This document shows positions 44,544 to 61,497 of a stretch of 64,000 nucleotides of DNA, in pieces. Position 1 is the first letter of the stretch. The number at the start of each line of letters is the position of its first letter. The stretch lies in the NCBI GenBank assembly GCA_963695355.1, contig OY968775.1, forward strand, positions 71,983 to 135,982. The letters are read 5' to 3'. The notes under the pieces are model-generated. The model saw nothing but the letters and a program-made list of their open reading frames with translations, was not told where the DNA came from and did no database searches. This DNA is from an uncultured beta proteobacterium. Lineage in GTDB: Bacteria > Pseudomonadota > Gammaproteobacteria > Burkholderiales > Gallionellaceae. A program made the translations under genes and the position numbers.

Positions 44544-44547
44544 TAGA

Positions 44548-44789: not shown

Positions 44790-45140
44790 GCCATAAGCAG
44801 AGCTCACATTTCTTTCCAAAAGGAGACATTCGTTCCTGCCCGTACTATCATGTGCGAAGGTGTGTTCGATGATTTTAGTATTCAGTTTGTAGGTGTGCTA
44901 AAAATACTTAACCGATTTAAATGAAAATATAGATTCGGCATGAAGAAGTTTGAAGTTAGTAACCGCTATTTTATCAAGTATTAATTGAAAAATAACATAC
45001 ACCGAGTTCAAACTTCATAGTGCCGAAGCAATAGCTCCCTACACAGCTAATTTATTATCCACCTGTCTTGATAAAAGATTAGGTCTTTTATTGGGGCCTA
45101 TATTCGTTAGGCAGGGCTTCATCGAGAGAGGTATTAAATT

Positions 45141-45644
45141 TTGAGCATGGAAAGTGTTTTATCAATAATTGGTTCAATTGCTTCTATTGGTGGAGCAATT
45201 TGGGCATTTATTGAAGCTAAAAAATCTACGAATGCAGCAACTAAATCAGAACGACTTCGTGATGAACTTATCCATCGAAGAAAAATGGTAGAGGTATCAC
45301 AAGTGCATTCAGAGACAACTAGAGTTTTATCTGTTGTATCCAAAGTTGGGCCTTCTTGTAATGCAAAGCTTCTCAAAGGTGTTAACTGTGCTGATATCGC
45401 AAAAGAGGTAGAGGTATATGCAAGGTTTATCTTAGAACAAAGCGGGCATTTCACTGATTTTTTCGAAAATAAAGCCAAAGAACTTTGTGCTGATTTAAAA
45501 AACGATATTGAAGCTTTGTCCGAAGCTATCAGTTTTGAAGACAAAAAAAATTACGGCAAAAGCATCTACTATAAAATTCAGAATTTTGTGCCCGCAGTTA
45601 AACAGCTCTCAGATGAAAAGAAAGAGCGAGCATTAGAGCTATAA
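45141..45644 (+). CDS. Hypothetical protein with N-terminal TM helix (cassette-borne)
   Basis: 167-aa ORF starting 28 bp after a GTTAGGC core site (45106-45112). Confidence 0.8.
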   Translation: MSMESVLSIIGSIASIGGAIWAFIEAKKSTNAATKSERLRDELIHRRKMVEVSQVHSETTRVLSVVSKVGPSCNAKLLKGVNCADIAKEVEVYARFILEQSGHFTDFFENKAKELCADLKNDIEALSEAISFEDKKNYGKSIYYKIQNFVPAVKQLSDEKKERALEL

Positions 45645-45658
45645 ATTAAGGAGTTATC

Positions 45659-46216
45659 ATGAAATTGACAGATGGTGAAAAGTTAATTGTTCTTATGCTA
45701 AGCGAGCTTTATGAAAAGCTTGGTGTAAATGGCGAAATAGAACCTGATTTCATTAAATCAGCTATTTTTAGCGATCAACTTTGGGGTATAAAATGGAAAT
45801 ATAGTGGTATTCCATTCGAAGAGTCAGAAGACCCAGAAATTGTAAAAGAAGTGGTTGATATTCTCGATATGTGGAGTTTCATTGAACGCGCCTATAGCCA
45901 ATTAAATGAAGAACAAAAGACTAAATTAGAAGCTGATGTTCCCTATTTTGGTCAAGATCCGAAATTTGTCGGTTTCGATGGCAATAATGAATCTGAATAT
46001 ATGGGAACAGCTATGTTTTTAGTAAATGAACTGGAAAGGTTTCAAGAATTTAGTGGCCGCAGCTTCAATTGCCACTCTCAATCAATAGATGGGTATCTCA
46101 GAATGTTGAGCGCATTCGAACCAATTCGTAAAACATTATCAAACAAGCCGTTAAACCTTGAGCAGTTAACTACAATTTTAAAAGAAATAACCCATCCCAG
46201 TAGAAGACAAGCCTAA
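45659..46216 (+). CDS. YfbU-family protein (cassette-borne)
   Basis: MKLTDGEKLIVLML, EVVDILDMW..IE, F.GFDGNNE..Y....FLV....RF, N.HS....Y.RML; stop codon lies inside GCCTAAC. Confidence 0.8.
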   Translation: MKLTDGEKLIVLMLSELYEKLGVNGEIEPDFIKSAIFSDQLWGIKWKYSGIPFEESEDPEIVKEVVDILDMWSFIERAYSQLNEEQKTKLEADVPYFGQDPKFVGFDGNNESEYMGTAMFLVNELERFQEFSGRSFNCHSQSIDGYLRMLSAFEPIRKTLSNKPLNLEQLTTILKEITHPSRRQA

Positions 46217-46250
46217 CAAAGCGTTCGTTCGGATGCTAACTACGCTGCGG
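46211..46250 (+). other. Truncated integron attC site (5' half)
   Basis: gcctaacaaagcgttcgttcggatgctaactacgctgcg: R'' box overlapping the ORF stop and exactly complementary to GTTAGGC at 45106; the 3' half is missing. Confidence 0.7.
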
Positions 46251-46259
46251 TCTGCACTT

Positions 46260-46560
46260 TGGAAACGCTACTGACCGCAATGTGCTGCCATATTTTATCA
46301 ACGTCGCAGGAAAACTGAATGTTTCAGGCTGGGATGCGAAAGAGCGACAATTGAGTTTTTCCAAGAAGTGCCAGGCCATCTGTATGGAACTAAAGTTGGA
46401 CTTCAATCCTTCGGTTGAGCCAAACGCTACCGCCATTCGGCTATTCGATTTGCGCAATGAGCTTGCCCATCCAAAGATGGTCACCGAGTCACTGAACGAA
46501 TTAATATCCCAGCAAGAATATGAGCGCCGACAAACTGAATTGGGGGGGGATAAGCCATCC
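46260..46560 (+). pseudogene. HEPN-like protein fragment
   Basis: YFINVAGK...W...ER.LS...K followed by LRNELAHPK (Rx4H); no intact N-terminus. Confidence 0.5.
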
Positions 46561-46929
46561 ATTGAGGGAACAGCTCACTCCTCTTGCAGTAGATCAGCTT
46601 ATTCAGTCCACCGAGGCTTACCGCTTGATGAAACAGTCGCGATGCTTAACACACACAAACCCAACGAAGAACAATTAAAGATGTTGACGTTAGGAATGGA
46701 AATGTTTGTGGGTGTGCTGGGTAATGTTGTTTCAGGCGTTGGCGAAAATAGGCATTGATACCACCATTATTAAAGGTATTCGATCCAAGTTTTATTAAGT
46801 TTTCAGCAGATTCCGTTTTGCTAATTAATAGCCCAACGTTGTCAAAATTGTCAGCTACAATGCAAAAAATATTGTTCTCAGTAAACTTTTTTTGTATTTC
46901 TTAAGACCTAATACGGCGCAGTTTTAATT

Positions 46930-48756
46930 ATGATCCTTGCCAAAATCCCACCTGTGAAGAGTCCGAGCCTGCCTGGATTCTCTATTGATGCGAACGTCTG
47001 TCTAAACCCTGCCTGCGAAAATTTCGGTGTCTCAGGAGAAGACATCCATCTGCCGGAAATCGGTTATGAATATAAGGACAACGATGAGGTCTTAAGATAC
47101 AAATGTAAGCGCTGCGGCCAATCCCACTCAGCCTTTAGCAATACCAGCGTGTTAGAAACTTTTCATCGCTGTCTTCAGAACTCGATACCCTACGCAAGCT
47201 GCCCAAATCCAGAGTGTAAAAATCATTTTGTAAACCTGTTTGAGCACTACCATGACGACCCGAGAGATAAGCGCGAAAAGCTTTATCGCATAAATGTCTC
47301 TGATGATGCCAAGGAGTATTATCAGGCTCGATGTCGTAGTTGCAATAAAACCTTCACCTTGTCAAAACCACTCCGTCTGCATATCAGTGAACGCAGATTC
47401 TGGCAGAAGGACATGGGTTTCTTCATTAAAGCTATCGTTAACAGCTCCGGGCCATCCATTGTCATGAACCTGGCAGAGGTTCATGGCGATCTCTACTATT
47501 CCCAGCTAACGGCTGCTTCGAATGCGTTACTCAATTACAACAACTTTCATCTCATCAATCTCTTGAAGCCCTCCGTTGCTCCTAAACTAATGCGGATTTA
47601 CACAGACTGTATCGTTTGCAGCATCAAGATGCACCGCAATGACCAAAGAGTTCAACTGATGAAAATCATTGTGTCAACTACTGAACTAGATGGCCGCTCA
47701 CTGATCCTCGCGTTCCACCCTTTGTTCGATCAGCAAGACATTGACGACAACATTATTGCGAACGATCACAAACAGCCATTGGAGCTACGGCGATATGAAT
47801 ATCTGAAACATCCATTCAATACTAAAAGGGATGAGAAGAATCCATTGCCTCCAATCGGGGTCGGTGGATCCTTCATGGAGGATTCATATGCCTACATGGG
47901 ACATTTTTTGGTATTAAGGAAACTTCTTGCCAAGGTAGAGTCATTACAGTTCTATATGGACGGTGAAGCTTCCCTATACAATGCTGCATTGACGGCCTTT
48001 TCCGATCGCATCAAACCCAATCACAACAAATCCAAAAGAAGTAGCTGTGATATCGTCGTGAAGGTATTGGAGAAAGATAAAAAAGCAACCCAAAATTACT
48101 CTCAGGTGAGGGACCAGGCTAGAAAATCCTTTCGAAAAGTCCATGCCGATTCGAAGCCGCCCGATGCCTCTCAATTACGCCGATTTTTATTGAGCGAAGA
48201 GATGCAACGGGTGAATGAGTCCATCAAAAATAGCAACACCAATAAGAGCAGAAAATTATTTACAGAACCACTCTCCAGAATTTACACAGTAGCAACCAGC
48301 AGGGCCAACACGACCGGTAAAGATTTTTGGGTAACCGACCTACTTAATGGTAAATCAAACCCGCCAGCCAGAATTTTGTGGTTAACCCGAACGACCGAAC
48401 ATGCAAATACAGACCATGAGCTCGACTTGTATCACAACTGTTCGCTCTTTTACATTGATAGTATATTTGGAGCCTTCCGACAGCGCTCCTCGTTGGTAGC
48501 TCGGCCTCAATTAACGGCATCAGGCCAAAGGAGCTATAACAGCAATCCCGAGTTACCTATCAATCTGATCCAGGATTTCACCATCAACGTAGCGTACTGG
48601 AATTTCTTCCTGAAATATCGAAGTGTGCCGAAAGAAACCATTGCCTATGTGCATGGCCTAGTCAAAAAGAAAGAATCTCCGGAGTTCAAAGTGGCTTTCC
48701 AGACCAGATATACCTTTGATAATGCGAAAAGGATAACCAAATGGCTTGGTATTTGA
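46930..48756 (+). CDS. Large multi-Zn-ribbon RNase-H-fold transposase-like protein, paralogue A
   Basis: CLNPAC/CKRC and CPNPEC/CRSC Zn ribbons, helical HTH-like segment, acidic motifs IYTD, FYMDGE, YIDSIF, and C-terminal VAYWNF...TIAYVHGL, all collinear with paralogue B. Confidence 0.7.
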   Translation: MILAKIPPVKSPSLPGFSIDANVCLNPACENFGVSGEDIHLPEIGYEYKDNDEVLRYKCKRCGQSHSAFSNTSVLETFHRCLQNSIPYASCPNPECKNHFVNLFEHYHDDPRDKREKLYRINVSDDAKEYYQARCRSCNKTFTLSKPLRLHISERRFWQKDMGFFIKAIVNSSGPSIVMNLAEVHGDLYYSQLTAASNALLNYNNFHLINLLKPSVAPKLMRIYTDCIVCSIKMHRNDQRVQLMKIIVSTTELDGRSLILAFHPLFDQQDIDDNIIANDHKQPLELRRYEYLKHPFNTKRDEKNPLPPIGVGGSFMEDSYAYMGHFLVLRKLLAKVESLQFYMDGEASLYNAALTAFSDRIKPNHNKSKRSSCDIVVKVLEKDKKATQNYSQVRDQARKSFRKVHADSKPPDASQLRRFLLSEEMQRVNESIKNSNTNKSRKLFTEPLSRIYTVATSRANTTGKDFWVTDLLNGKSNPPARILWLTRTTEHANTDHELDLYHNCSLFYIDSIFGAFRQRSSLVARPQLTASGQRSYNSNPELPINLIQDFTINVAYWNFFLKYRSVPKETIAYVHGLVKKKESPEFKVAFQTRYTFDNAKRITKWLGI

Positions 48757-49526
48757 GCGAGGTCGTCACCGATCTCTCCCCTGTCGTGGAGATCCTCAAG
48801 CTATACGATCAGACCACCGGATCATTCCCCGATGAAGAAAATAACGATGATTACAAAAAACGCCTAGTCCCGTTATTACGCCAGGCCACGTTTAATACCG
48901 ACCACATTGAAGCCGATAGCATCCCGGCAGCCTATGAGAATGATGAGTACAAATGGCTGGCATCCGGCTACCACGACCTTATCCGCAAACTGGGGCTTGT
49001 TAAGCTTAGCGTCGATAAGCTTGAGCGTGAGCATGGGTACTCTTTAGAACTGACAGAAGCAGGAAGACAGGTTCTCAACCAGCAGCTCACCTTATCCGAA
49101 CTCATGAAGGCCGGGTTGCCTGAATGGAGAAACGATGCCGGAATCCACCCCTATCCGATCATCCTAAAGCTCTTGTCGAATTTAAAACAGAGCAATCTTT
49201 ACCCTTGTGGTGGCCTGTTGCTGCTGGAGGTAATGATCGTTTTATTGAAGCTCAACCAACCGCATGGACACATTATCAATCTCTATGACCATATCCAGGA
49301 ATATAGAAAAGGGTTTTATCCTTACATGACTGGTGAGGTTCAAGTCGATCTGATCAACTATTCAGGTTTACTCTGGGAGAAGCTGAGCCAGGACTTATCC
49401 AACTACCATGCTGCCAATTACCCGGCTCGGGCAACATTGCAACTGATGATGTACGCGGGCGATTTAGCCTATGGCCCGGTACCCGATGAGATCTTTGGTC
49501 AGGTTCAGTACGTCACCATCGCCTAA
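48741..49526 (+). CDS. Putative AlwI-family restriction-endonuclease-like DNA-recognition (winged-helix) subunit
   Basis: LIRKLGLV...LELTEAGRQVL and IHPY.IILKLL.NL...LLLLEV resemble the AlwI-family N-terminal domain; overlaps paralogue A by 16 bp. Confidence 0.5.
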   Translation: MAWYLSEVVTDLSPVVEILKLYDQTTGSFPDEENNDDYKKRLVPLLRQATFNTDHIEADSIPAAYENDEYKWLASGYHDLIRKLGLVKLSVDKLEREHGYSLELTEAGRQVLNQQLTLSELMKAGLPEWRNDAGIHPYPIILKLLSNLKQSNLYPCGGLLLLEVMIVLLKLNQPHGHIINLYDHIQEYRKGFYPYMTGEVQVDLINYSGLLWEKLSQDLSNYHAANYPARATLQLMMYAGDLAYGPVPDEIFGQVQYVTIA

Positions 49527-49541
49527 TACGAGTCATTCATC

Positions 49542-50390
49542 ATGGTTGAAAACAACAAAACCATCGCCATCGGTACAGATAAAGATCCCTATAAGGTACC
49601 GCTGAACCTAAAACAGTTGTCGATATATATGCAATACATTATTCCGAATTCAAAGCGTGAAATGAAAGATATATTCGGTAAATTTGATCTCGATTCAGCT
49701 TCACGCAGAAAACAGCTGAACACCATCGACTTTAAAACCGATGCGGGTGAACGCATGACATTGCAGAAAATCAACAAAGGGCTCACGATGGAATTGTTCG
49801 CTAGCGGAATGTTCAGCTACTTCGATCATCCCTCAGAAGTGCATTCAAACTGTGTCGCAAATCGATATCACCCTCAAGGTGCAGTTGATAAGAACCAATA
49901 CCAAGTAGTGCCAAAAAATTATGCACCAGGGGGTATGCCGGATGTGCAGATTGACTATACGAATTTCATGGTGATGTTAGAGGTCAGTGCCAAGGAGAAG
50001 CCAACCTTAGGAGATTTGAGTAAACAATTTAACGGTGCATTAAAGCACGCACGCACAATCCGCGAAGATGGATATGATAAGCCTATCTATTGCCTAGTGA
50101 TCCACGAGCGCTCTTTGATGGAAACGAAAAATAAAACCGCGCTGAAAGAAGTCCTGGAAGTGATCAATCCATCAGAGCAGATCTATATCACCGCGATATC
50201 GATATTGGAATTTGCGGGTTTGGGGCAAGTGATGGCAGATACATACGAGAATGCCATTTCCATAATACAGAACGACAATTTACTTAGTGTCCTCAAGGCA
50301 ACCGTTGAAAAGGGTGTTGAGGGTAAGTTTCATGACGAATTCGTTAAATGCCTGAAAGACCTTAAACCCAAAGCTGCTCATGAATGGTGA
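49542..50390 (+). CDS. PD-(D/E)XK nuclease, AlwI/FokI-like catalytic subunit
   Basis: PKNYAPGGMPDVQI..Y...MLEVS...KH...YCLVI matches the AlwI-family pattern APGG.PD...EV; no methyltransferase nearby. Confidence 0.6.
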   Translation: MVENNKTIAIGTDKDPYKVPLNLKQLSIYMQYIIPNSKREMKDIFGKFDLDSASRRKQLNTIDFKTDAGERMTLQKINKGLTMELFASGMFSYFDHPSEVHSNCVANRYHPQGAVDKNQYQVVPKNYAPGGMPDVQIDYTNFMVMLEVSAKEKPTLGDLSKQFNGALKHARTIREDGYDKPIYCLVIHERSLMETKNKTALKEVLEVINPSEQIYITAISILEFAGLGQVMADTYENAISIIQNDNLLSVLKATVEKGVEGKFHDEFVKCLKDLKPKAAHEW

Positions 50391-50419
50391 CTTTGGAAGT
50401 TTGTGTGTGGATGTGACTG

Positions 50420-50748
50420 GAAGCATATTCCACTCGTTTTGAGATTTTCGACAGATTTTCGGCCTTAGCTGACGTGACTGGCTGGCTCATGTAGGTGTAA
50501 AGACAGCCTACATCACACCTGGCAGTCCATGGGAGAACGGTGACTGTGAAAGCTTCAACGGCACATTGCGTAATGAGTTGCTTGATGGAGATATCTTCTA
50601 TGGTGTCAAAGAAGCGCAGGTGTTGGTTGATCAGTGGGTCAGGCATTACAACACCACCAGGCCGCACAGTTCGTTGGGTTACAAGCCTCCTGCGCCAGAG
50701 GCTATCATCAACATGAACATACAAAATTTACACTCGGTGATGCACTGA
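50420..50748 (+). pseudogene. IS3-family transposase 3' remnant
   Basis: GVKTAYITPGSPWENGDCESFNGTLRNELLD...W..HYNT.RPHSSLGY.PP. Confidence 0.9.
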
Positions 50749-50905
50749 AGTATGATACAAATACTCTCACTTCAAGTGGTACTAAATTTGACGCAGTTCA
50801 TGACTTCAGCAACGAGCACCACCATGTCCGCAAAGCATAACGTAACTCTGTCAGGGGTTGGCAACCGTACCTTCGGGCGAAAGGTGTGAATGCAGGACTT
50901 AACGC

Positions 50906-53083
50906 CTACGTCGATAAATACAATCGCCACTGTTGAATTACTGATGCGGTCACTGCATCGCTCAACCATACTGCTTGTTGAAGAATTTTAGTATTCTCAT
51001 CATTGGGTAACTTTGGATTACATAATTGCTTGCACATATCCAGCAAGTTTTTATAGGGTATCGGACTTTTGCTGAATAGCGTGTTATGTCGATACAACCC
51101 TAACTCTTTTAACTGAGTGTTGAGAAGGGCTGCATAGATGTATTTTGAATAGCTTAAATTCAGCTCCATATTGACGTATTCACGAAACACGTCTGCCTCA
51201 ACGATGACATTTTCTACATTTAAAATCTCACGAATAACCTGCATGACGGCATCTGTGTCGATATTGCTAAAGGCTTTTTCAGTTGTGGTGTAAACCATTT
51301 TATCAACGCGAACCACTTTGCCTTCTTGCATCAAATTGCTGATATAAAATCCGGCATGACCTAAACTTTTGCTTTTCAATCGCTCAGCTATTTCCTGCTT
51401 AGTCATGGCTACTGTGGATTCATTAAGCACTTTTATGATGACATCGGCTTGGGTGATACGTTTTGAATCTGGATCAAGGCTTATGCTATCCGAACCTGAT
51501 TTGCCATCAAAGTAAAGTCCGTAATCTTCGCCATACTCTCTGACAAGATGGCGCAAAGTGAAGTACTCTATTTCGCTGCGTTGCCCTTTGGTTTGATAGT
51601 AATAGTCGTGCAAATGCGAAGCTGTTATTTGTTTTCGCTTAAAGTAATCAATCAGATGTTGCATGATTTCAGGGATGTCAAACTGCTCAAGGTCAAGAAA
51701 TATCAGATTTCGATAAGTTCCTTTGCCGCATAAATAAATATATTCGGAATCATTGAACCCATGAGTTGATCTAGTCTCATCTATTTGTGTTGATGCGCAC
51801 CCTTTTACATTTACTATTTTGGCAATATCTTTCCATGGCAATCCTTCGGGATGAGAAGTTAAGATATGAGCCACGGCCTTGCCTCTAGCAAGTTTCATTG
51901 GATAAATGCCTTGTTCAGTTACTTTAATGTTATGGGATTTCTCTAATTGGTTTATGCCGTGTATTGCTGATGCCTTGTCGTACCCATAATTCGACATCAA
52001 TTCATTGATGATAATTTCTTCGGCGACAGGGGAAGGCATAGAGCAGAACAGCGAGTCTATAATTTCAGTATGAATCTTGGTGAAAATTATCTTGCTAATG
52101 CTGCCTGTTTCAACTTGGCAACATAATTCAATAAGAGCGTAGAACAGCTTCTCTGTGGCAAAACATTTGGCTAATTTAGGCAATAACACCGTTAAATCTT
52201 CAATCATTCTTGCACGGATATTTGCCCATAATATTTTGGGTGGTATCGTCAAACGAAAAGGAAGATTGGCATTGATAGGCTGCTCAATTTGGCGTATCCG
52301 CTCTCTGGTTAGTGGCTTACCCTCGGTATTTTTATATCGACCTGCAACTTCCTCAAGCGTTTCATGTTGGTGATTGAATCCCCAGCGCGAAAGCGCAATA
52401 TCCGTTTTCATTTCATCCAATGTCCATAAATAGCTTTCAATGTCTTCAATGAGTACGTTATCTATCTCTTTAAATTCAATTAAGTTTAATGAGGTAAATT
52501 TTTCCGACTGCTCAAATAAAAGGTTGGGCAATTGTTTTTGCAATTTAATTAAACTTAAAGCATACAACTTGCCCACAGAAGGTAATTCAGCAAAGTGAGA
52601 CGAATCGAGATTAATGAGGTCTTGAACCGTGACTAAGTCGCCCACTGAAGCAGAAATTTTTCTTATGAGTTCTTGATATTGTGTTGGGAATACCACTTGC
52701 GCCAGATGAGTTTCTAGTTGTGCTAGTGAAAGTGTAATTTGAGGGGGTAATTCAAACGCGGCAGGCATCGTGCTTAAAGCATTTTCCTTGATATCAGAAC
52801 CTGGTTTGACTGTTGAGGCATTCATGTCAAGTGACAAGCCAATCTTGCCAAGACAGAGCTCGATTTCCCGCAGCGACTTAAGGCCTAAATTCTGGGCTTG
52901 CAGCAAACTATTTCTAGTGCATTGAACCAGATCTCGGATGTAATGAATATTTTGTTTCTTGAGGCAATTGTATGGGCGCGGTGGGAGATTCAGATTCTCA
53001 ATGGGGCGCTGAAAAATTGCGTCATTCTTACTAGATAAAAGCACTTGTCCATATTCCGAAGTATCCATTTCATTCATTTTCAT
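50906..53083 (-). CDS. RNAP alpha-CTD / sigma70 region-4 / multi-wHTH protein
   Basis: IENLNLPPRPYNCLKKQNIHYIRDLV...NLGLKSLREI (alpha-CTD), a second degenerate copy, and TLEEVAG...TRERIRQIE (sigma70 r4 HTH). Confidence 0.8.
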   Translation of the reverse strand: MKMNEMDTSEYGQVLLSSKNDAIFQRPIENLNLPPRPYNCLKKQNIHYIRDLVQCTRNSLLQAQNLGLKSLREIELCLGKIGLSLDMNASTVKPGSDIKENALSTMPAAFELPPQITLSLAQLETHLAQVVFPTQYQELIRKISASVGDLVTVQDLINLDSSHFAELPSVGKLYALSLIKLQKQLPNLLFEQSEKFTSLNLIEFKEIDNVLIEDIESYLWTLDEMKTDIALSRWGFNHQHETLEEVAGRYKNTEGKPLTRERIRQIEQPINANLPFRLTIPPKILWANIRARMIEDLTVLLPKLAKCFATEKLFYALIELCCQVETGSISKIIFTKIHTEIIDSLFCSMPSPVAEEIIINELMSNYGYDKASAIHGINQLEKSHNIKVTEQGIYPMKLARGKAVAHILTSHPEGLPWKDIAKIVNVKGCASTQIDETRSTHGFNDSEYIYLCGKGTYRNLIFLDLEQFDIPEIMQHLIDYFKRKQITASHLHDYYYQTKGQRSEIEYFTLRHLVREYGEDYGLYFDGKSGSDSISLDPDSKRITQADVIIKVLNESTVAMTKQEIAERLKSKSLGHAGFYISNLMQEGKVVRVDKMVYTTTEKAFSNIDTDAVMQVIREILNVENVIVEADVFREYVNMELNLSYSKYIYAALLNTQLKELGLYRHNTLFSKSPIPYKNLLDMCKQLCNPKLPNDENTKILQQAVWLSDAVTASVIQQWRLYLST

Positions 53084-55395
53084 TGTCCTGAATTATTTCT
53101 GTTCTTTTGCAGACAACTGAGAAAACGAAATTCTGAACTAAATACACGTTTAATTTCTGCTCTACCTTCGGCGGGTAGTTTTAATAAATCCTGCCTCGTC
53201 TTAATAATATTCAGATACTTTTCAATGAGCAAGGACTCTTCATTAATTTCGGCAATTTTTGAGATATTTGTCGGCGATACCTCAAGGGGTGCTGTGATGG
53301 CTTGTTGATTTAATTGAACGGAATTTATGGATAAAAAATTTCCTAATTCACTTTCATTACCCAACAAAAACTCGACCTCGGCTTCCGAGCAAGCAAGCAA
53401 ACCGTTATGTTGCTTAGCAAGGCTAATCGCTCTAAAACTTGGGCAGATGCGATTTTTTTGATAAAAGTTCTGCGCGTAATCCAAGCATATTTTACGAAAC
53501 ATACCTTGATCGTATTGCCCAATTAATGCGGCTTCCAGATAGCCAAAATACGAGTCAAAATGCGTAGCGATTTGGTCGGCAGTAACATCAGTCGAAATAC
53601 TTTCGATTTCATTCAGTTTGGGGATATGGTTGTTGTCCTCATAGTATCTTCGCAGCACCTCAATCACCTGCATTCGTGACTTCAAGCGATATTGCAGCTC
53701 TTCAATAAGTTGCAAAACTTGCGCGGCAGATTGGCTATAGCTCACTTCCAACGAAGAGTTATGCACGGTTTCCTTTTTATCGCGTGGCTCCCAATTTTCT
53801 TTTTCAATGGGTACGCGATTTACTCTTTTGCTGAGTTGGTGTACTTCGTTTAGCCGTTCCAATGAACCCACAAAATCTAATACATGAACGTAATCTTTGT
53901 TGGGTGTTTTGCGCAGTCCTCTGCCTAGTTGTTGCAGCCAGATCGTATGCGACCCCGTGTAACGCATAAAAACTAGCAGATTAGTTTCTGGAATATCAAT
54001 GCCTTCGTTGAATAAATCTCGTACCAAAATGTAACGATAATTCCCCTCACGGAAATCACGGATATTTTGCCAGCGTTGTGAATCACTCATTTGAGAATGT
54101 ACAAAGGTCGCGCTGCCTGGCGGGAAAAACTGAATCAGGTAAGTAATGTGTTGAATATTGCGGCAAAAGACAATCCCCTTGAGATTGCAGATTTGTTTTT
54201 CTTGTACGGTTTTTTCTATGATGCGGACAACTTCTTCGTCCTTTTTATGCAAGAACAGACGTTGGTCTAAATCGCTAATCGACATGCCATGATTCAGTTG
54301 GTCTATACGCGATTGATCCAAGTCATCAAGCAAAACCAAATACTTTGGAAATGCCAGTTTGTTATGACGCAATGCCCAAGCTAAATCATACTTGCCCACA
54401 TGACCTGCCGCACCACCAAAAAATGCTAGTACGTCTTTGTTATCCTCACGAAACGGTGTTGCGGTCAGGCCTATCAATAATTTTGGATGAAAATGCTCGA
54501 CGACTGTGGCATAAGTTCTGGCTGGGGTGTGATGAGCTTCATCAACCACTATCACGTCAAAAGTTTCCTTTTCCAGCGTGGCGATTTTGCTAAATAGCGT
54601 ATCGAAACTGCCAAACACAAAATCAGTTTGCTCTGGGTTTGCACCATCAAAACAGGCCGAAAATGAGTAAGTGCCAATACCCAAAACGTTTTTGAAGGCA
54701 GTAACCGATTGCAACAGTATTTCGACCTGATGCGCCAAGAACAGCACACGCTTAACTTTGCCCTGTTGCAATATCTGTTTTAGCAAATGGGCAACGGTAT
54801 AGGTTTTACCTAACCCTGTTGCCATTTCTATTAACAAACGATTATGCCCTGCATTAAAGCGCGTCAAGCTGTCCTGAATAACGGTTTCTTGGTATGTTCT
54901 GGGCTTGATATCCCGTCCGATTTCTGATTGCTTCTCAATCCACAAATTCTGCAAACTGTCACGATCAAGTAGCTCAACTCCAAGTCTTAACGCTCTTACT
55001 TTCACCTCGGAAGTAAAATAAGAATTTGTCACTAAAATCATGTTGACGACATTAGCGAGCTTTGCGCCCGTGACCAATTGATTTAATGCGCTTACGTCAA
55101 CTGTATCTCCGGCTTGCCTTTGCTTGACTTCAATCGCAAATTTTCGTTTGCTTTTATAGGCGAAAATATCAACACCACCATCACCATGCTTAAACTCCTT
55201 CCCTACTTTGGTAATAATTGCATCGCTCCAGCCAGCAGCCACAAAAACATCCCGGACGTAAATTTCAAAATCGGATGGAGATAGTTTATCTATCAGTTTG
55301 AATTCTGATAAAGCGGCTTTGTTCAGTGGCGGGCAAACACGATTTGTGTTGACATGATGTTTTCCACCGCCGACTTGTTTTTTGCCTGTTTTCAT
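53080..55395 (-). CDS. Mrr-family endonuclease fused to SF2 (ResIII/DEAH) helicase
   Basis: DFE.YV..VF...GDGGVD...IEVKQ...VTNS.FT (Mrr_cat); MATGLGKT, VDEAHH, GLTATP, FNEGIDIP, QQLGRGLR. Confidence 0.88.
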   Translation of the reverse strand: MKTGKKQVGGGKHHVNTNRVCPPLNKAALSEFKLIDKLSPSDFEIYVRDVFVAAGWSDAIITKVGKEFKHGDGGVDIFAYKSKRKFAIEVKQRQAGDTVDVSALNQLVTGAKLANVVNMILVTNSYFTSEVKVRALRLGVELLDRDSLQNLWIEKQSEIGRDIKPRTYQETVIQDSLTRFNAGHNRLLIEMATGLGKTYTVAHLLKQILQQGKVKRVLFLAHQVEILLQSVTAFKNVLGIGTYSFSACFDGANPEQTDFVFGSFDTLFSKIATLEKETFDVIVVDEAHHTPARTYATVVEHFHPKLLIGLTATPFREDNKDVLAFFGGAAGHVGKYDLAWALRHNKLAFPKYLVLLDDLDQSRIDQLNHGMSISDLDQRLFLHKKDEEVVRIIEKTVQEKQICNLKGIVFCRNIQHITYLIQFFPPGSATFVHSQMSDSQRWQNIRDFREGNYRYILVRDLFNEGIDIPETNLLVFMRYTGSHTIWLQQLGRGLRKTPNKDYVHVLDFVGSLERLNEVHQLSKRVNRVPIEKENWEPRDKKETVHNSSLEVSYSQSAAQVLQLIEELQYRLKSRMQVIEVLRRYYEDNNHIPKLNEIESISTDVTADQIATHFDSYFGYLEAALIGQYDQGMFRKICLDYAQNFYQKNRICPSFRAISLAKQHNGLLACSEAEVEFLLGNESELGNFLSINSVQLNQQAITAPLEVSPTNISKIAEINEESLLIEKYLNIIKTRQDLLKLPAEGRAEIKRVFSSEFRFLSCLQKNRNNSGQ

Positions 55396-55955
55396 TATTT
55401 CAGTGAAGAAGATGAAGTTGTAAAATTGAAAGCAAGTCTATAGCACTAGTGATATAGGTGTCGATAATTAGTGGCTTCACATATTGCAATCGATTCCTTC
55501 CATCTGCACAGGTTGCGGAGCGTTTAGTTGTTCGACATCGCAGCTAACACGTGAAAGTCATCCCACTCTCCTATCGAATGCATCTTATTCGCACTAATGG
55601 CATCTTTCAGGATGACTTGCTACAAGGGTCGACAATCCGCCAGTAGGTCGGGTGGCGAGCCTCTCCATTATCAGTTATTCCTCAAGCTGATTAAACTGCT
55701 TCAAAAATAATTCAATGACTACTTTGTAGAAGGGAGTATGAGCAAGCCTACAGCACTACAGCAATATATAAATGTCATTTACGGAACTTCAACTTGTTAT
55801 TTCATTTATTTTACGGCACGATTCTGTGATGAGAACGATTTTTCTATATTGTCATCAGTGAAAGAAATACGTAATGGTAAATTTCACCCCACCTACGGAA
55901 ATTGACGCTTCACAGCATAACTGCCTGCGCCCCTCACTTCAAAGTTAAATCCCAG

Positions 55956-56780
55956 ATGGCGATCCACCAACTCGATCTATTAGAGAATGCACTCGACAGC
56001 CTAGCTGAAGCACTGGCGAAGTTCGAAGAGGGCGATGCGGGAGAATCAAAGGCATACAAGTTCGCCATTTTACATATGGCGCACTTTATTGAACTTATTT
56101 TCAAACATCACATAGCACAAAAGCATCCGCTATTGATTTACAAGGATCCATTCGCGCAAAAGGTCGATAAGAACAAAACCATTACCCTTTGGGATGCGGT
56201 GAATTTTATCAACAACGAGGCGACAGACACAGTTTCTGCTGAGTTTCGTACCAACTTGGAATGGCTGAAGCGACTAAGAAACGAAATCGAACACCACAAA
56301 TTCACAATGGATGTGCCACAGGTGCGCATCACGTTGGGAAGACTGTTCCGATCAGTGCTTGAATTTCTTGAAAACTATAGCGGTGTTGAGATCGAATCTC
56401 ATATTCCCGACAACACAATGGATTCTTTCAAGGTGCTTTCTGACGAGTATGAGTTCCGACGACGCGATGCCATCCGTAAAGCAGAAGAAGTCGAAAAAGC
56501 AAACACATCAGACCACACTTCGGGCGAAGACGAGTCACCTGTGAGGCTTGATTGTCCCAATTGTGAGAACCCAACTCTGGTTATCAATGATGACTCTGAT
56601 ACGGGCTATCGTTGCACATTCTGCGAGAACGAAGATAGTGACGAGTTGCCCGCATGGTGCGACATTTGTAGCGTCCAAACCATCCATGGTGAACTCGTAT
56701 TTTGGGAAAGCGAGGCTGGTCAAACTGAAGGCCGCTGCTATTACTGCTCAGGTAGATACCGTGCTGAAAAAGATGACTAA
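55956..56780 (+). CDS. HEPN-like protein with C-terminal Zn ribbons
   Basis: AILHMAHFIELIFKH, LRNEIEHH (Rx4H), CPNC/CTFC/CDIC/CYYC; likely ATG at 55956. Confidence 0.65.
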   Translation: MAIHQLDLLENALDSLAEALAKFEEGDAGESKAYKFAILHMAHFIELIFKHHIAQKHPLLIYKDPFAQKVDKNKTITLWDAVNFINNEATDTVSAEFRTNLEWLKRLRNEIEHHKFTMDVPQVRITLGRLFRSVLEFLENYSGVEIESHIPDNTMDSFKVLSDEYEFRRRDAIRKAEEVEKANTSDHTSGEDESPVRLDCPNCENPTLVINDDSDTGYRCTFCENEDSDELPAWCDICSVQTIHGELVFWESEAGQTEGRCYYCSGRYRAEKDD

Positions 56781-56863
56781 ACTTTGGTCTAGCATGGTAT
56801 GTGCGAAAAGTCGCGCAGGCATGGTTGATTCTAAAGCCAGATTTCATAACATGAGCTGAGCTA

Positions 56864-57769
56864 ATGATTACAGAAAAATTGTATATTATTGGAAACGGTT
56901 TCGACATTTATCACGGGATACCATCGCGGTATACGGACTTTCGAACATATCTTGAACAGAGCGACCGGTCACTTTGTCAGAAGCTTGAGAACTACTTCAG
57001 TTACGAAGGATTATGGGCGGACTTTGAACAATCGCTGGCTGATTTCGATGCTGACAGATTGATTGAGGATGCGTCAAATTTTCTTGTTTCCTATGGGTCA
57101 GACGATTGGAGCGATTCATATCACCATGATTTTCAGTATGAGATTAATGAAGTGGTTGTCGCTTTATCACAGACATTGAAATTAAAGTTTGCGGAGTGGA
57201 TTGCACAACTACCAATCCCATCCGAGTTGGATATTAAAAATAAAAAGCTCGGTTGCATTGACAAAAATTCGACATTTTTGTCGTTCAACTATACAAACAC
57301 CCTTCAGGCAGCCTACTTAGTTTCAGACAGCCATGTGCTTCATATTCACATGAAATATCTAGTAAATGGCCCAGATTTAGTGCTGGGGCACGCTTGGAAG
57401 CCGGTCAAAAGAAATGCGTTAATGCATCAAGATGATCTTGAGCGGCAAGATGTCCGCATTGCCGAAGGCGACAAGATAATTGATAGATACTTCAAGACAA
57501 CCTACAAGCCAACGGAAGAAATTATAAAATTAAATGGCGAATACTTTGCGAGCTTGCGCCGAACAAAAGAAATTTATGTACTTGGGCACTCGATGTCGTG
57601 CGTTGACATTCCATACTTTCAAGAGATTGTGAGATCAATTGATGCGCGAAACACGAAGTGGTACATAAGCTACTTTGATGAGAAAGAGTTAGCAAGTCAT
57701 CAAGGAGCAATGAATGCCCTTGGCATTAGAGCAGAGTTGATAAATTTTTCTGACTTAAAGAGTATTTGA
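56864..57769 (+). CDS. abiH: AbiH-family (SIR2-like) abortive infection protein
   Basis: LYIIGNGFDIYHG..SRY.DF, FLSFNYT.TL, HIH...LGH, YVLGHSM..VD..YF. Confidence 0.85.
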   Translation: MITEKLYIIGNGFDIYHGIPSRYTDFRTYLEQSDRSLCQKLENYFSYEGLWADFEQSLADFDADRLIEDASNFLVSYGSDDWSDSYHHDFQYEINEVVVALSQTLKLKFAEWIAQLPIPSELDIKNKKLGCIDKNSTFLSFNYTNTLQAAYLVSDSHVLHIHMKYLVNGPDLVLGHAWKPVKRNALMHQDDLERQDVRIAEGDKIIDRYFKTTYKPTEEIIKLNGEYFASLRRTKEIYVLGHSMSCVDIPYFQEIVRSIDARNTKWYISYFDEKELASHQGAMNALGIRAELINFSDLKSI

Positions 57770-58040
57770 GTGAGTGTCTAAAGCGGGGAAAAGGTGTGTG
57801 ATTGGTTTTTATAAAGAAAATAGCCAGCCCGCAATTATACTGCCAGCTTTCCAGCTAAATAATTTTAGAGCAGTGAAGTGGGCAACTGCACTAATGAAGG
57901 CGATTGAGGACGCAAACGCAAAATGATAGATAGCGACTTCTGGGTTGCGCACATTGTCCAGCATTGAACAAAGAGGCCTTTGATAAAAACTCTGAATATA
58001 GGAGAATGAGGAATTGGCGAATAGCAACAAACATTAATTA

Positions 58041-58577
58041 ATGATAGCTTGGGAAGCATTTAAATATCGGGGAGTCGAGTACGATTTAACTCATCTTCAC
58101 CCATGCCGTCTCCAGTATATTCAATCGGAAAAATCTGGTCAGCCAGAAAGAAGATATATCGTTGAAGTCTGCTACAGCTTGCACTGCTTTACAAAAACAT
58201 TTTCAACCGCAGCAGACCCACATCTTAACTATAGTGATGCAAGAGAGACTCGAACTTTTGATCTTGAAAGATACGAATTATCTAAACAACTACCGCAAAT
58301 CATCCAAGACCTGAGTTCTAAAAGATGTATGCATACGGGAAAGGGAAATTTCTTTGTGGTTGAAGTTGTTACTTCAAGCGGTGCTAAAGAAGATTACGAG
58401 GTGTATTTTGATGTCCAGAATTCAAGTGCCAAGGGAATGATTGCACGCCTCTTTGTACAAAGTGCTTATGTCAGAGATGAAAAGCATATCAACAGATTAG
58501 CCGCCACCAAAAAAATATCGCTGTTTGTGATTCTGAATAATAAGCAAACAGGAAAGCCGATTAAAATGCCGCAGTAG
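58041..58577 (+). CDS. Hypothetical protein, putative RNase toxin (BECR-like, tentative)
   Basis: 178-aa ORF with YDLTHLHP, HCFT, R.FD.ERYELSKQLP and RLFVQSAY; faces a convergent structured RNA. Confidence 0.6.
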   Translation: MIAWEAFKYRGVEYDLTHLHPCRLQYIQSEKSGQPERRYIVEVCYSLHCFTKTFSTAADPHLNYSDARETRTFDLERYELSKQLPQIIQDLSSKRCMHTGKGNFFVVEVVTSSGAKEDYEVYFDVQNSSAKGMIARLFVQSAYVRDEKHINRLAATKKISLFVILNNKQTGKPIKMPQ

Positions 58578-58579
58578 AA

Positions 58580-58710
58580 ACGGTTAAGGCTCCTTACGGA
58601 GCCTTAACTTTGATACTAACCGAACCTCTTAGAATATCTGCACTTGGGCGGAAACCATTTCTGGCGGGATCACTGCACGGCTTTCACCGCATTCGGTTTA
58701 TACAATGACA
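58580..58710 (-). ncRNA. Putative ~130-nt structured RNA (candidate RNA antitoxin)
   Basis: Enclosing stem AACCGAA/UUCGGUU, hairpins GCGGU-GAAA-GCCGU and CCA-GAAA-UGG, upstream sigma70 promoter, downstream terminator. Confidence 0.6.
58583..58608. terminator. Hairpin terminator shared by the convergent ORF and RNA
   Basis: Perfect 11-bp stem gttaaggctcc-ttac-ggagccttaac with short T/A tracts on both sides. Confidence 0.8.
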
Positions 58711-58715
58711 TGGGC

Positions 58716-58744
58716 AATATATTCCTAAATGACGAACCCGTCAA
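58716..58744 (-). promoter_or_regulatory. Sigma70 promoter driving the putative RNA
   Basis: Minus strand TTGACG (58744-58739), 17-bp spacer, TATATT (58721-58716); no ORF follows before the terminator. Confidence 0.7.
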
Positions 58745-58856
58745 TATCTATTCCGCCATCACAATCTGACCGTACCGTCGTGTGAATTGACTGTTGTTGG
58801 CGACGATTGGAGGGTAATCTCAAGCGTGTTGGCACCCTTAGTACGCTTGACCGCAG

Positions 58857-60737
58857 TTATAAGCGCATTCCTTTCCTACGTTTTCTGGGTGCTCTCGGTA
58901 TCTTCTGTCCGGGCCACAACACATCATCGTAATGCAAAGGTTTATTAGTTAGCCCAAGCCGCATAGCTGGCGTCATTTTGTCATCATCACTGATCTTGAT
59001 GAAATTATGATAAACCCGAAGCAGACTCAGATATTGCTCCACCATCTTTGGATTGTAGGGTGCGTAACCGTGCCAGACCGTGTTGTAGCCGCTTGAAGTG
59101 CCAATCGGGCGCTCAAATGCATTTATCAATCGCCTCGAAATTTGAAAAATATTATCCACGGCATTGATGCCTGCATCGAGGTACATCTGTGCCCTGGTCA
59201 AATCGTCATAGTCATTGTCGCTTCGCTCAGTTAACCAGCATATAGCTTTATCCGGTTCGTTCATTGACGGAAGAGGATGGGTCACCCATTTATCCTTCCA
59301 TTTACCAATGTTCGCTGCCCCTACTATGTTGTCGTGCATCAACCATAATTTAGCCTGATCCCGTTTGTTTGCGGGTAAATTGGACGAGTAGTCTGACAGG
59401 ATCTGTTGTGCCTTTTCACACCGACCCTCTTTATCTGGAGTGGTCAGGAATTTCGAATAGCGAACATAGAAACCGTGGGCTTGACCAGATTTGATTTCTT
59501 TTTCAAATGCCGAGATAAATCCGGCCCTGAGCATGGAATCGCAATCCATGTAATAGAATAATTTCTCTACCCCTGCCCCCTTGACCAGCATATGCATCAT
59601 TTGAAAATGGGCATAGCTGGTATACGGCACATGAACTTGCATGCCTTTGGTCAAGATGGGATTGCAGTAATCCAAATCCATATTTTGTTGCTCACGATTC
59701 TCAACATCCTTGCGAGATTGTGCTGCAACATAAACATCATTGATCTGTTGCAAGATATCCTGAGCCTTTGTTAAACCGAGTCGCTGACCAAGCTTGCGGC
59801 CAGCCAGAAACTCATCACAAGTCATCCAATATTGTGCGTGCTGTCTAAATGCTTCCGGTCTCAACGCGTCACCGTTCATCGAGGCTTCTTTGTTGATCGT
59901 GTAGGAATCGGCATCCTTATCGTAGTTTGCACACATGCCAAGGATAAAGCGGCTATCCTGATCAACCGTACACACAGTTGAAAATTCAGCGTTACGCCGA
60001 TCATGCTTATTAGTCCAGTTGAGTTGATACTCCTGGACATCGACTGATAGCCTGAGGGTTTTGGGAAGCAATATCTCACCATTGATCATACGTCGGTCAA
60101 ACAATCCTGATAATTGGTTGCAGCGACGATGGACAAAATCGAGTAAAGAGTAATAGTTTTCATTGCTTTGGATAGACATCCCCCTGATAGCGCATCGAAC
60201 TGGGGATTTGTTGGCGACACGGCTGAATAAATCCGATGCCATATGCCTGTTCTTTGGATGAATACGAACTGGTTGTGAAGCCAACATCCGTTTCTTGCAA
60301 GCCTTGCATACATATAGCTGCTCTCCGGTGACCGAGTGAACCCCTGCCCTACTGTAAAGCTCAGGATACTCACCAACAGTACATCCGCAATTCGGACATC
60401 CAACCGTCTTGCACGCGAGTAATTCGGTCGTCGTAAGCACTGAATGGGTGATGCGCTCAAATTCAGCGGATATACCGGTATTGGATTTGATTGGAATCTT
60501 CTCGTTGCATGACTTACACAGGATGGCCGGAATACGACCTTCTGATGTGTTTGTTACTTTGTAATGAGTATCGCGATCGGGGCTCGGGCCAGGTTTACCA
60601 GGCTGTTCTCTGGCAGGGATACCAAAGTTATCACATTGAGGGTTTTTGCAAAAATTGACCTGCAGTGGCATGGCCGGACTGGCCCCCAATTTCAGTTGGG
60701 AGGTCGGCGGAATACGAAAATTTGTTGGCTGAACCAT
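58857..60737 (-). CDS. Large multi-Zn-ribbon RNase-H-fold transposase-like protein, paralogue B
   Basis: NFCKNPQC/CKSC and CKTVGC/CKAC Zn ribbons, HTH-like segment, LSVD, YYMDCD, NAVDNIF..SRR, VYHNF...MTPAMRLGL (IS1-like tail); starts 77 bp inside the right IR. Confidence 0.75.
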   Translation of the reverse strand: MVQPTNFRIPPTSQLKLGASPAMPLQVNFCKNPQCDNFGIPAREQPGKPGPSPDRDTHYKVTNTSEGRIPAILCKSCNEKIPIKSNTGISAEFERITHSVLTTTELLACKTVGCPNCGCTVGEYPELYSRAGVHSVTGEQLYVCKACKKRMLASQPVRIHPKNRHMASDLFSRVANKSPVRCAIRGMSIQSNENYYSLLDFVHRRCNQLSGLFDRRMINGEILLPKTLRLSVDVQEYQLNWTNKHDRRNAEFSTVCTVDQDSRFILGMCANYDKDADSYTINKEASMNGDALRPEAFRQHAQYWMTCDEFLAGRKLGQRLGLTKAQDILQQINDVYVAAQSRKDVENREQQNMDLDYCNPILTKGMQVHVPYTSYAHFQMMHMLVKGAGVEKLFYYMDCDSMLRAGFISAFEKEIKSGQAHGFYVRYSKFLTTPDKEGRCEKAQQILSDYSSNLPANKRDQAKLWLMHDNIVGAANIGKWKDKWVTHPLPSMNEPDKAICWLTERSDNDYDDLTRAQMYLDAGINAVDNIFQISRRLINAFERPIGTSSGYNTVWHGYAPYNPKMVEQYLSLLRVYHNFIKISDDDKMTPAMRLGLTNKPLHYDDVLWPGQKIPRAPRKRRKGMRL

Positions 60738-60814
60738 AATTATCTCGACTTTTCACATTTAAGTGGAAATATTAAAAGCATGTAACATACTGCTTGCTTT
60801 ACATATTTTAGTCA

Positions 60815-60836
60815 TTATATCACAAAATTCCGAACG
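60815..60836 (-). repeat. Right sub-terminal inverted repeat
   Basis: ttatatcacaaaattccgaacg, followed by ggtag and the ttctccgcca duplicate. Confidence 0.97.
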
Positions 60837-60851
60837 GGTAGTTCTCCGCCA

Positions 60852-60957
60852 AATCAATCACTTATGATTATTATAAGTAATCATAAGTAACTGCAAAACA
60901 CCAAAAATAACAGCTTTAGTCTGACCGTTTCCTGACCGTTTTACAAACTCGGTCAGG
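60852..60957. repeat. Putative left end (att region) of an older integrative element
   Basis: 11-7-11 dyad acttatgatta/taatcataagt (60860-60888); direct repeats ctgaccgttt at 60921 and 60932 with an inverted cggtcag at 60950. Confidence 0.5.
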
Positions 60958-61007
60958 AAAAATTTTTCTTTTCAGTCAATAGACAGGCTGCCAACGTTAA
61001 CCAAGAT

Positions 61008-61165
61008 TCAGATTCCGCTTGAATTGGTGCAAGTGTAAGTAGTGCCATTGTAATTAAATTCACACATGCCACCTCCAAGCTCGCAGTCACGAGCGAAAGC
61101 CTTATAGTCGATGCAGCTGTGTAGGTTCTCAGGTATTTCGTGTGCATAACATTCATCAAAAATCT
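61008..61165 (-). pseudogene. ArdA-like antirestriction protein C-terminal remnant
   Basis: FDECYAHEIPENLHSCIDYKAFARDCELGG resembles the ArdA IP..L..YIDYEAFARD motif. Confidence 0.5.
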
Positions 61166-61189
61166 TCTGCTGCATCTTCATGATGTCCA

Positions 61190-61400: not shown

Positions 61401-61431
61401 CTATTGATCCGGCACGAATTGAACTTGATAA

Positions 61432-61497
61432 CCGTTCGTGCTGAGCCTGTCGAAGCACAAGAATCCACTTACATTTCGACAGGCTCAATGCGAACGG
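61432..61497. repeat. REP-like palindromic element
   Basis: ccgttcgtgctgagcctgtcgaa ... ttcgacaggctcaatgcgaacgg inverted pair. Confidence 0.88.

Follow-up and report, generated by a model that had tools for sequence, protein, structure and literature searches.

A conserved two-gene cassette pairing an Mrr-type nuclease-motor with an RNA polymerase-like reader, a candidate restriction-like anti-phage system

SauUSI of Staphylococcus aureus (PDB entry 7CLG) is a type IV restriction enzyme that depends on ATP, in which a nuclease head of the PLD family is followed by a superfamily 2 (SF2) translocase and a C-terminal domain, DUF3427, that reads 5-methylcytosine (5mC) and 5-hydroxymethylcytosine (5hmC); it has no cognate methylase. 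Mrr is a stand-alone protein of ~300 amino acids (aa) with an N-terminal winged-helix domain, Mrr_N. In type I restriction-modification (R-M) systems such as EcoAI (type IB), the HsdR subunit holds a PD-(D/E)xK nuclease, an SF2 motor and a helical C-terminus in one chain, and recognition is delegated to a separate subunit (in the M2S complex). Mza, reportedly established by Gao et al. in 2020 as a validated defence operon, is said to encode MzaA (a sigma-70-family protein), a MutL-like ATPase, a Z1 protein and the products of further genes. PglW has a domain like the C-terminal domain of the RNA polymerase (RNAP) alpha subunit (alpha-CTD), and then three winged helices (PMC12839542). Here we describe a gene pair found in a 64,000-nt stretch of DNA from an uncultured beta proteobacterium of the family Gallionellaceae (contig OY968775.1, positions 71,983 to 135,982; the whole stretch is called the window below), in which gene 1 encodes an Mrr nuclease fused to an SF2 motor and gene 2 encodes a protein with RNAP-like and winged-helix domains. 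The pair is a self-contained, conserved and horizontally mobile two-gene cassette. It belongs to the known nuclease-helicase, restriction-like kind of defence, and differs by its predicted recognition subunit made from RNAP parts. Judging from sequence comparisons, we lean towards a two-subunit, ATP-dependent, restriction-like anti-phage system with a separate DNA-reading subunit.

The nuclease-motor gene and its closest relatives

Both genes lie on the minus strand. Gene 1 (53080-55395) is a 771-aa open reading frame (ORF) whose product, P0001, is recognised as a nuclease-motor by its Pfam domains, and gene 2 (50906-53083) is a 725-aa ORF whose enzyme-free product, P0002 (the "reader"), is defined by its homologues and by an AlphaFold model with a predicted local distance difference test score (pLDDT) of 84. 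The stop codon TGA of gene 1 overlaps the ATG of gene 2 in an ATGA (53080-53083, context caATGAaa), which couples the two genes; the span of the pair and this 4-nt overlap are exactly as reported in a first-pass annotation made from the sequence. The start of P0001 is 27 codons upstream (55315-55395) of the start used by all orthologues (MITDFK...), and the position aligned with that start is a leucine codon, TTA, and no start codon, so that this copy is apparently extended at its N-terminus or uses an unusual start. Promoter and terminator scans of positions 50300-56000 gave results no better than shuffled sequence.

P0001 has three parts. Residues 35-151 (54943-55293) form an Mrr_cat PD-(D/E)xK nuclease (Pfam PF04471, 3.9e-17), and residues 163-511 (53863-54909) an SF2 translocase core, recognised by ResIII (163-316, 1.2e-35) and Helicase_C (403-495, 2.8e-13) as well as by its motifs and a PDB profile. 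With Mrr_cat, ResIII and Helicase_C in one chain, the fusion of an Mrr nuclease to an SF2 helicase that had been proposed from the sequence is confirmed. In an alignment of 19 orthologues, the predicted catalytic residues D76 and E89-x-K91 are invariant, and so are the motor motifs, namely Walker A (GLGKT, 194-198), DEAHH (285-289), TAT (311-313) and motif VI (QxxGRGxR, 488-495). The third part, residues 520-771 (53083-53838), appears all-helical in a low-confidence model (pLDDT 61 for P0001 as a whole, which is poor); the conservation pattern in the alignment shows a variable linker (~680-725) and a conserved tail. Pfam gave no significant family match here, only weak ones to HNH_repeat and DsrC. 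We regard this C-terminal helical region as a candidate docking region for the reader.

Using a profile of the 19 orthologues to search PDB, we found SauUSI as the best match (7clg_A, 4e-49; profile positions 128-596 align with SauUSI 213-666), followed by RadD (1e-28) and HsdR (3h1t, 3e-21), with XPB also among the relatives. Foldseek with the weak P0001 model returned a similar set (XPB, RadD, SauUSI and the type ISP enzyme LlaBIII). The PADLOC matches of P0001 to mREase_IV (PDLC03659, 2e-52), PbeA (5.7e-27) and type I restriction endonucleases cover the motor only, and its Mrr head matches the Mrr-like part of ZorD (4.7e-11).

In P0001 as in SauUSI, a nuclease head precedes an SF2 translocase and a C-terminal region, and a cognate methylase is lacking. 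P0001 differs in its nuclease, which is Mrr-type PD-ExK with no PLD match in Pfam, in the helical region that stands where SauUSI has DUF3427, and in the separate, obligatorily linked 725-aa reader encoded next to it. Since P0001 is without the 5mC-reading domain, something else must recognise the target, and the linked partner is the obvious candidate. The first-pass annotation had called the nuclease type IV and modification-dependent; such a property is not implied by the Mrr_cat fold, and no modified-base reader domain was found in the protein. P0001 also shares the D...(D/E)xK motif of Mrr_cat with Mrr itself, but it is a 771-aa protein without a match to Mrr_N.

The similarity to HsdR extends to the combination of nuclease, motor and helical C-terminus in one chain (NCBIfam restrict_EcoAI, 6e-38) and probably to a recognition function placed in a separate subunit. 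We rejected membership in type I R-M, as restrict_EcoAI scores 130.7 bits versus a cut-off of 550 and neither HsdM, HsdS nor a methyltransferase accompanies the pair; the putative recognition partner here is unrelated to that of type I enzymes and is derived from alpha-CTD, sigma-4 and winged helices. Two further candidates were rejected. ZorD of Zorya matches over the Mrr part alone, and for Hachiman neither P0001 nor P0002 has a match to HamA (DUF1837) or HamB at E<=0.1 (the E. coli orthologue matches HamB at 0.003).

The reader and its polymerase-like modules

The reader begins with a true RNAP alpha-CTD (residues 20-85, 52829-53026 on the minus strand; Pfam RNA_pol_A_CTD at 20-78, 1.2e-18), which is 49-54% identical to solved E. 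coli alpha-CTD structures (3n97, 1lb2 and 3k4g, by Foldseek). After a disordered linker (89-111) comes a degenerate, alpha-CTD-like helix-hairpin-helix (HhH) repeat at residues 112-202 (52478-52750), in which the model has the same helix pattern as in the first domain; hhalign gives E 0.0017 over 33 columns, G171 is invariant, and HHH_5 is found in 10 of 19 P0002 homologues. The next part is a sigma-70 region 4 (4.1 and 4.2; residues 204-275, 52259-52474), and the remainder is a conserved core (residues 282-725, 50909-52240). The core has a helical region and approximately five winged helices according to the model and Foldseek, which finds SelB (1lva) and the tandem winged helices of UFL1-DDRGK1; the winged helix at ~400-465 is HARE-HTH-like, and HARE-HTH is found in 3 of the 19 homologues (best 1.1e-5).

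Region 4 is weak in P0002 itself, where it falls below the Pfam threshold and matches the NCBIfam RpoD, RpoS and RpoH models at E 5e-4 to 4e-3, and clear in the family, with Pfam Sigma70_r4 in 16 of the 19 homologues (best 3.4e-8) and a match of the reader family profile to solved SigA/RpoD region 4 at 6e-11. The same part of P0002 is matched by NCBIfam MzaA (4.6e-5). The sigma-70 region 4 helix-turn-helix named in the first-pass annotation therefore stands. Its "alpha-CTD copies" reduce to one true alpha-CTD, the second being the degenerate HhH repeat, and its "further helical domains" can be refined to a helical stretch followed by the winged helices. RNA_pol_A_CTD was found in 6 of the 19 homologues, and most orthologues paired with an Mrr-motor have degenerate HhH repeats only. 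Proteins of this type are named "sigma factor-like helix-turn-helix DNA-binding protein" by NCBI. We rejected the identification of P0002 as an RNAP subunit: it has an alpha-CTD and region 4, with no alpha N-terminal domain and no sigma regions 2 or 3, RpoA models match it over their last ~70 positions, and a genuine rpoA is found elsewhere in the genome.

In the numbering of E. coli RpoA and RpoD, the 265 determinant of the alpha-CTD contacts DNA, the 261 determinant contacts sigma and the 287 determinant contacts activators, and R265 is the residue that is ADP-ribosylated by T4 Alt and ModA. Among 168 distinct alpha-CTD-like copies, the 265 determinant is retained at 74% on average (R265 94%, N268 96%, G296 98% and E302 98%), while the protein-contact determinants 261 and 287 are kept at 19% and 34%, as compared to 38% for other positions. 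P0002 keeps all eight DNA contacts (R36, N39, C40, N65, G67, K69, S70 and E73, equivalent to E. coli R265, N268, C269, N294, G296, K298, S299 and E302), and its protein-contact sites are changed (D258/D259/E261 to E29/N30/N32, and E286/V287/E288 to R57/N58/S59). The same pattern is seen in region 4.2, where T259-R-E-R-I-R-Q-I-E267 of P0002 corresponds to T583-E591 of sigma-70 and includes the -35 contacts R584, E585, R588 and Q589. The recognition helix R-E-R-x-R-Q-x-E is invariant across deep clades sharing ~20% identity, and an RQxEKxxN motif common to the region 4 sequences hints at an ancient origin of this module. The activator/anti-sigma patch of sigma-70 (K593/R596/K597/R599) reads P/A/N/P in P0002. 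We favour a DNA-reading role because the DNA contacts are kept, the protein-contact surfaces are lost, and one relative is fused to a DNA methyltransferase (P0303, see below).

To place these modules we included RpoA of the same genomes in trees of the alpha-CTD, which have 73 columns only and some long branches. For the P0002 clade, the alpha-CTD branches with RpoA from the genus of the window itself (98/100). In 13 genomes of that genus the RpoA alpha-CTD is the same or deviates at 1-2 residues, and it has residues that 9 other families of the order lack. All copies of the SAR11 clade are sister to SAR11 RpoA (97/88 to 99/90), and the additional alpha-CTDs of P0175, P0212 and P0222 have hardly diverged (62-64% identical, with SAR11-specific motifs). 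Elusimicrobia copies group with Elusimicrobia RpoA with weaker support (81/89), which is why we count this third case only as probable: host-lineage rpoA was the source of captured alpha-CTDs in no fewer than two cases and probably in three.

Such captures bear on the proposal in the first-pass annotation that these modules could be decoys. As an integrated decoy, the alpha-CTD and sigma-4 would mimic RNAP surfaces, a phage take-over factor would be captured by them, and the nuclease-motor would be released or activated. That the alpha-CTD derives from rpoA of the hosting lineage fits this idea; so do the N-terminal array, which is the fastest-evolving part (mean pairwise identity 32%, where the reader core has 53% and the motor 71%), as expected of a phage-facing sensor, and the retention of R265, the target of T4 Alt and ModA, in nearly all copies. 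However, the captured copies lose precisely the surfaces that contact proteins and keep those that contact DNA, the sigma-70 patch is replaced in P0002, most Mrr-motor-paired orthologues have degenerate HhH repeats only, and one relative is fused to a constitutive DNA methyltransferase. Besides, a captured domain of any kind would come from the resident genome, so that resemblance to the host is in part a matter of how recently it was captured. We therefore consider a decoy unlikely and retain it as a minority reading on account of the host-lineage captures, and the DNA-reading role is preferred.

Two other occurrences of alpha-CTD-like domains were observed. An own-genus genome has a 180-codon open frame ending in such a domain (61 bits; locus L085, G329:C6:123594-123767), which forms a long branch inside the P0002-type alpha-CTD clade and is maybe a small stand-alone alpha-CTD protein or a gene fragment. 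BFVD matches to the structure model m765a1469a9a3 include small proteins (105-140 aa) of many uncultured tailed phages, with the description "RNA polymerase, alpha subunit, C-terminal"; these could be transcription factors or counter-measures against alpha-CTD-bearing readers.

Pairing, distribution and other partners of the reader

By scanning one genome per species, we obtained 28 loci encoding P0002 relatives. DNA upstream of gene 2 is available for 23 of them, and in 22 of these the adjacent upstream gene is a gene 1 orthologue (56-88% identical); ORF clustering of the 28 loci gave no third conserved gene; in the neighbourhood comparison called for in the first-pass annotation, the two genes are thus adjacent and nothing else is conserved. 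This pairing is far beyond chance. The paired loci come from Methylococcales, Nitrosomonadaceae, a Sulfuricellaceae metagenome-assembled genome (MAG), Coxiellaceae, Parabeggiatoa and Marinobacter. The pairwise identities of the motors and those of the reader cores, compared as matrices, are strongly correlated (Mantel r 0.96, 0 of 5000 permutations). Among 21 long relatives, no single-chain fusion of the Mrr-motor and the reader was found.

The cassette is patchily distributed. The reader was found in 1 of 301 genomes of the host's order. In E. coli, 72 of 5426 complete genomes (~1.3%) hold 80% or more of the cassette, as an orthologous pair (WP_001530084.1, 60% identical to P0001, and WP_000410983.1, 35% identical to P0002) that lies on chromosomes between a ydeT remnant and hipBA. 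NCTC9699 and ET745 are among the carriers of the pair. Neighbours in other genomes include Septu PtuA, DRT, MADS and PARIS components mixed with housekeeping genes.

We note several interrupted or partial copies. In Methylobacter luteus IMV-B-3098 (locus L013, 3861-9914), the Mrr-motor gene is split by ~3.8 kb and the downstream reader gene is intact; the insert is an IS256-type transposase gene, itself broken by an IS21-type istA/istB pair. E. coli C has a decayed cassette (NZ_CP020543.1, 2337374-2341377, H40; also in WG5 and NCTC122, H33 and H34), in which the motor gene is split by ISSen4 (its pieces are annotated as "restriction endonuclease" and "DEAD/DEAH box helicase") and the reader gene is reduced to its first 620 nt. 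On the IncHI1A plasmid p65COLEC-1 of E. coli (L061, 8098-14568), and likewise in two Salmonella plasmids, an orphan reader gene directly follows IS1; it is followed by a PDC-S06 ATPase (4e-235) and then a DUF4145 protein, with no Mrr-motor in the 19.5-kb stretch of p65COLEC-1. A second, larger SF2 motor protein, of 967 aa and with 32% identity to P0001 across the motor, is encoded 3 kb upstream of the pair in Methylotuvimicrobium sp. KM1 (L014, 1824-4727) and may be a type IV enzyme of the SauUSI-like kind within one and the same island.

This distribution bears on whether the cassette serves defence at all. It might instead act in DNA repair or recombination, or in the upkeep or transfer of the mobile element that carries it, and the repair helicases RadD and XPB are indeed among the nearest structural relatives of the motor, and many neighbours in other genomes are housekeeping genes. 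Nevertheless, its extreme patchiness and its decay mediated by insertion sequences (IS) are what is typically seen in accessory defence genes rather than in repair genes, no conserved mobility gene travels with the cassette, and relatives of the reader partner the defence components SIR2, Z1/HATPase and BrxX. We consider a role outside defence very improbable.

The reader family is large (n=193 P0002 homologues; 264 clusters at E<=1e-30 among 1.84 billion representatives), and full-length relatives have the same domain order and different effector partners, with the conserved core of P0002 common to relatives that partner other effectors. SAR11 readers (~100 clusters) head operons of HATPase_c_3, Z1, and DUF4420 or MTaX1, plus a convergent C5 DNA methylase, and the Z1 gene matches MzaC (7e-27 and 2e-20). 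In a Kofleriaceae MAG, the reader gene has a WYL regulator upstream and, downstream, genes for an FHA protein and a ThsA-like SIR2 protein (2e-38). Two metagenomic proteins are fusions: P0303 (2007 aa) joins a reader to the BREX methyltransferase BrxX/PglX (residues 1258-2005, 3e-241 to 8c45/9ewz), and P0301 (1436 aa) joins a reader to a Cdc48/p97-like AAA+ ATPase (residues 287-561). More distantly, an Elusimicrobia MAG encodes an alpha-CTD/sigma-4 protein, P0233, directly upstream of PbeA (7e-220) and PbeC (3e-165); P0233 resembles P0002 in the N-terminal third only.

The tight pairing and the reuse of the reader also bear on the possibility that gene 1 alone is a conventional type IV enzyme and gene 2 a regulator or accessory DNA binder dispensable for cleavage. 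The SauUSI-homologous motor, the type IV mREase_IV models as best PADLOC matches and the lack of a cognate methylase are in line with this possibility, and gene 2 has only helix-turn-helix and HhH modules typical of regulators, as reflected in its NCBI name. But gene 1 has no counterpart of SauUSI DUF3427 or of the N-terminal DNA-binding domain of Mrr, and regulators are not usually 725-aa proteins encoded downstream with translational coupling. Divergence of the two genes runs closely in parallel, and a family that heads, or is fused to, quite different effectors fits a working subunit. A self-sufficient gene 1 is, in our assessment, rather improbable, and we continue to prefer a two-subunit system.

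The pair was also compared with three more systems. Mza has a region-4-bearing, enzyme-free subunit (MzaA), and SAR11 relatives of P0002 head the MzaC-like Z1 operons; the similarity to MzaA is restricted to region 4, at the C-terminus of MzaA, and the effector here is a nuclease-motor fusion. Membership in Mza was rejected (MzaA scores 22 bits versus a cut-off of 800, PADLOC gives no MzaA match, MzaB-E are absent from the window, and the cassette has no Z1 or HATPase gene). For BREX, the first-pass annotation had pointed to RNAP-like modules in PglW, and PADLOC does match PglW to the alpha-CTD of P0002 (E 0.0023), but the resemblance is limited to that part. One P0002 relative (P0303) is fused to BrxX, whereas P0002 itself lacks the kinase, NERD nuclease, inactive STAND and methyltransferase, and no BREX genes are found in the window; the pair was therefore not assigned to BREX type 2, whose PglW is at least 1400 aa long, with only P0002 residues 21-85 aligning and an NCBIfam score of 14.8 bits versus 990. 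The phosphorothioate-linked PbeABCD resembles the cassette in the match of the P0001 motor to PbeA models (5.7e-27) and in the location of P0233 upstream of PbeA and PbeC. It differs in that PbeA is without the Mrr head, and it was rejected for a motor-only match (versus 7e-220 for a true PbeA) and for lack of an adjoining PbeB, PbeC, PbeD or DndD-like ATPase. In all, PADLOC 2.0.0, Pfam and NCBIfam give no system name to the two proteins or to their E. coli orthologues, in agreement with the first-pass annotation, which did not recognise the pair as a named system, and in the literature searched we found no published description of the pair and no paper citing the E. coli accessions.

In the window, the cassette lies in a low-GC stretch (44500-61500, ~36-46% versus ~50% in the flanks) and has AbiH (56864-57769) and a PDC-S64 candidate (55902-56780) as neighbours. 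Other genes in this stretch are a YfbU-domain gene (45659-46216), a YjaZ-family gene (58041-58577), a possible split type IIS-like nuclease (49542-50390; weak REase_II and HEC-02B matches), and two convergent zinc-finger proteins without family match, of 608 aa (46930-48756, plus strand) and 626 aa (58857-60737, minus strand).

A proposed mechanism and its implications

Our functional statements, i.e., those on complex formation, the DNA feature read, the sparing of self DNA and protection, are predictions from sequence and models. Gene 1 would be the effector, with a SauUSI-homologous double-stranded DNA translocase as motor, an Mrr-type PD-ExK head replacing the PLD nuclease, and a helical tail in place of the 5mC-reading domain of SauUSI; gene 2 would supply target recognition in trans. 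The reader may bind a DNA feature via its HhH/alpha-CTD repeats, sigma 4.2 and winged helices, candidates being UP/-35-like or AT-rich DNA and, through the HARE-HTH-like domain, modified bases. It would then dock to, or license, the motor-nuclease through its conserved core, probably at the helical C-terminal region of the motor, and, on the model of SauUSI and type I enzymes, ATP-driven translocation would be followed by DNA cutting by the PD-ExK head. The intact catalytic and ATPase motifs, the strict adjacency and co-divergence of the two genes, their patchy and mobile distribution, and the reuse of the reader family with other defence effectors all argue for such a system.

Several observations weigh against it. 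Apart from the weak HARE-HTH similarity, no recognised modified-base reader was found, and a Pfam tally of 111 neighbours contains no recurrent methyltransferase, which together leave the sparing of self DNA unexplained. A reader that keeps the DNA contacts of sigma 4.2 and the alpha-CTD should also bind host promoters, and the repeated capture of the alpha-CTD from host-lineage rpoA is not predicted by a plain DNA-binding role. The neighbourhoods elsewhere are only partly defence-like, many flanking genes being housekeeping genes. Finally, we infer the association of the two proteins, and the model of gene 1 is poor. The overall interpretation in the first-pass annotation is partly supported: the pair is a conserved cassette without a system name that sits among defence genes in the window, modification-dependence is unsupported, and a decoy is the less likely role of the reader.

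There is also a bolder proposal, which we think is doubtful: the reader may be a host-matched copy of the promoter-recognition head of RNAP that works as an infection sensor rather than as a plain sequence reader. It could serve as bait for phage proteins that seize the alpha-CTD or sigma-4. Alternatively, it could probe promoter DNA and fire on strong UP/-35 promoters that a phage is unable to lose through mutation, or on host promoters vacated when a phage shuts off host transcription. If this were true, one reader superfamily would arm Mrr-motors, Z1/HATPase sets, SIR2 proteins, AAA+ ATPases and BREX methyltransferases, and bacteria would, on more than one occasion, have built an immune receptor from components of their transcription machinery, via recaptured rpoA fragments.

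Under the two-subunit, DNA-reading interpretation that we prefer, the cassette would add a testable member to the nuclease-helicase class of anti-phage systems, with recognition delegated to the promoter-reading domains of RNAP. Its presence in 72 complete E. coli genomes makes these readings directly testable with standard phage panels. As readers of this family are joined to five or more effector types, finding out what the reader recognises would show how several systems are triggered (Mza-like, SIR2-linked, BREX-fused and AAA+-fused), possibly including the Pbe-linked proteins, which have a more distantly related alpha-CTD/sigma-4 partner. The capture of the alpha-CTD from host rpoA in separate lineages is an unusual evolutionary signature, and it bears on the question of integrated decoys as in plant nucleotide-binding leucine-rich repeat receptors (NLRs).

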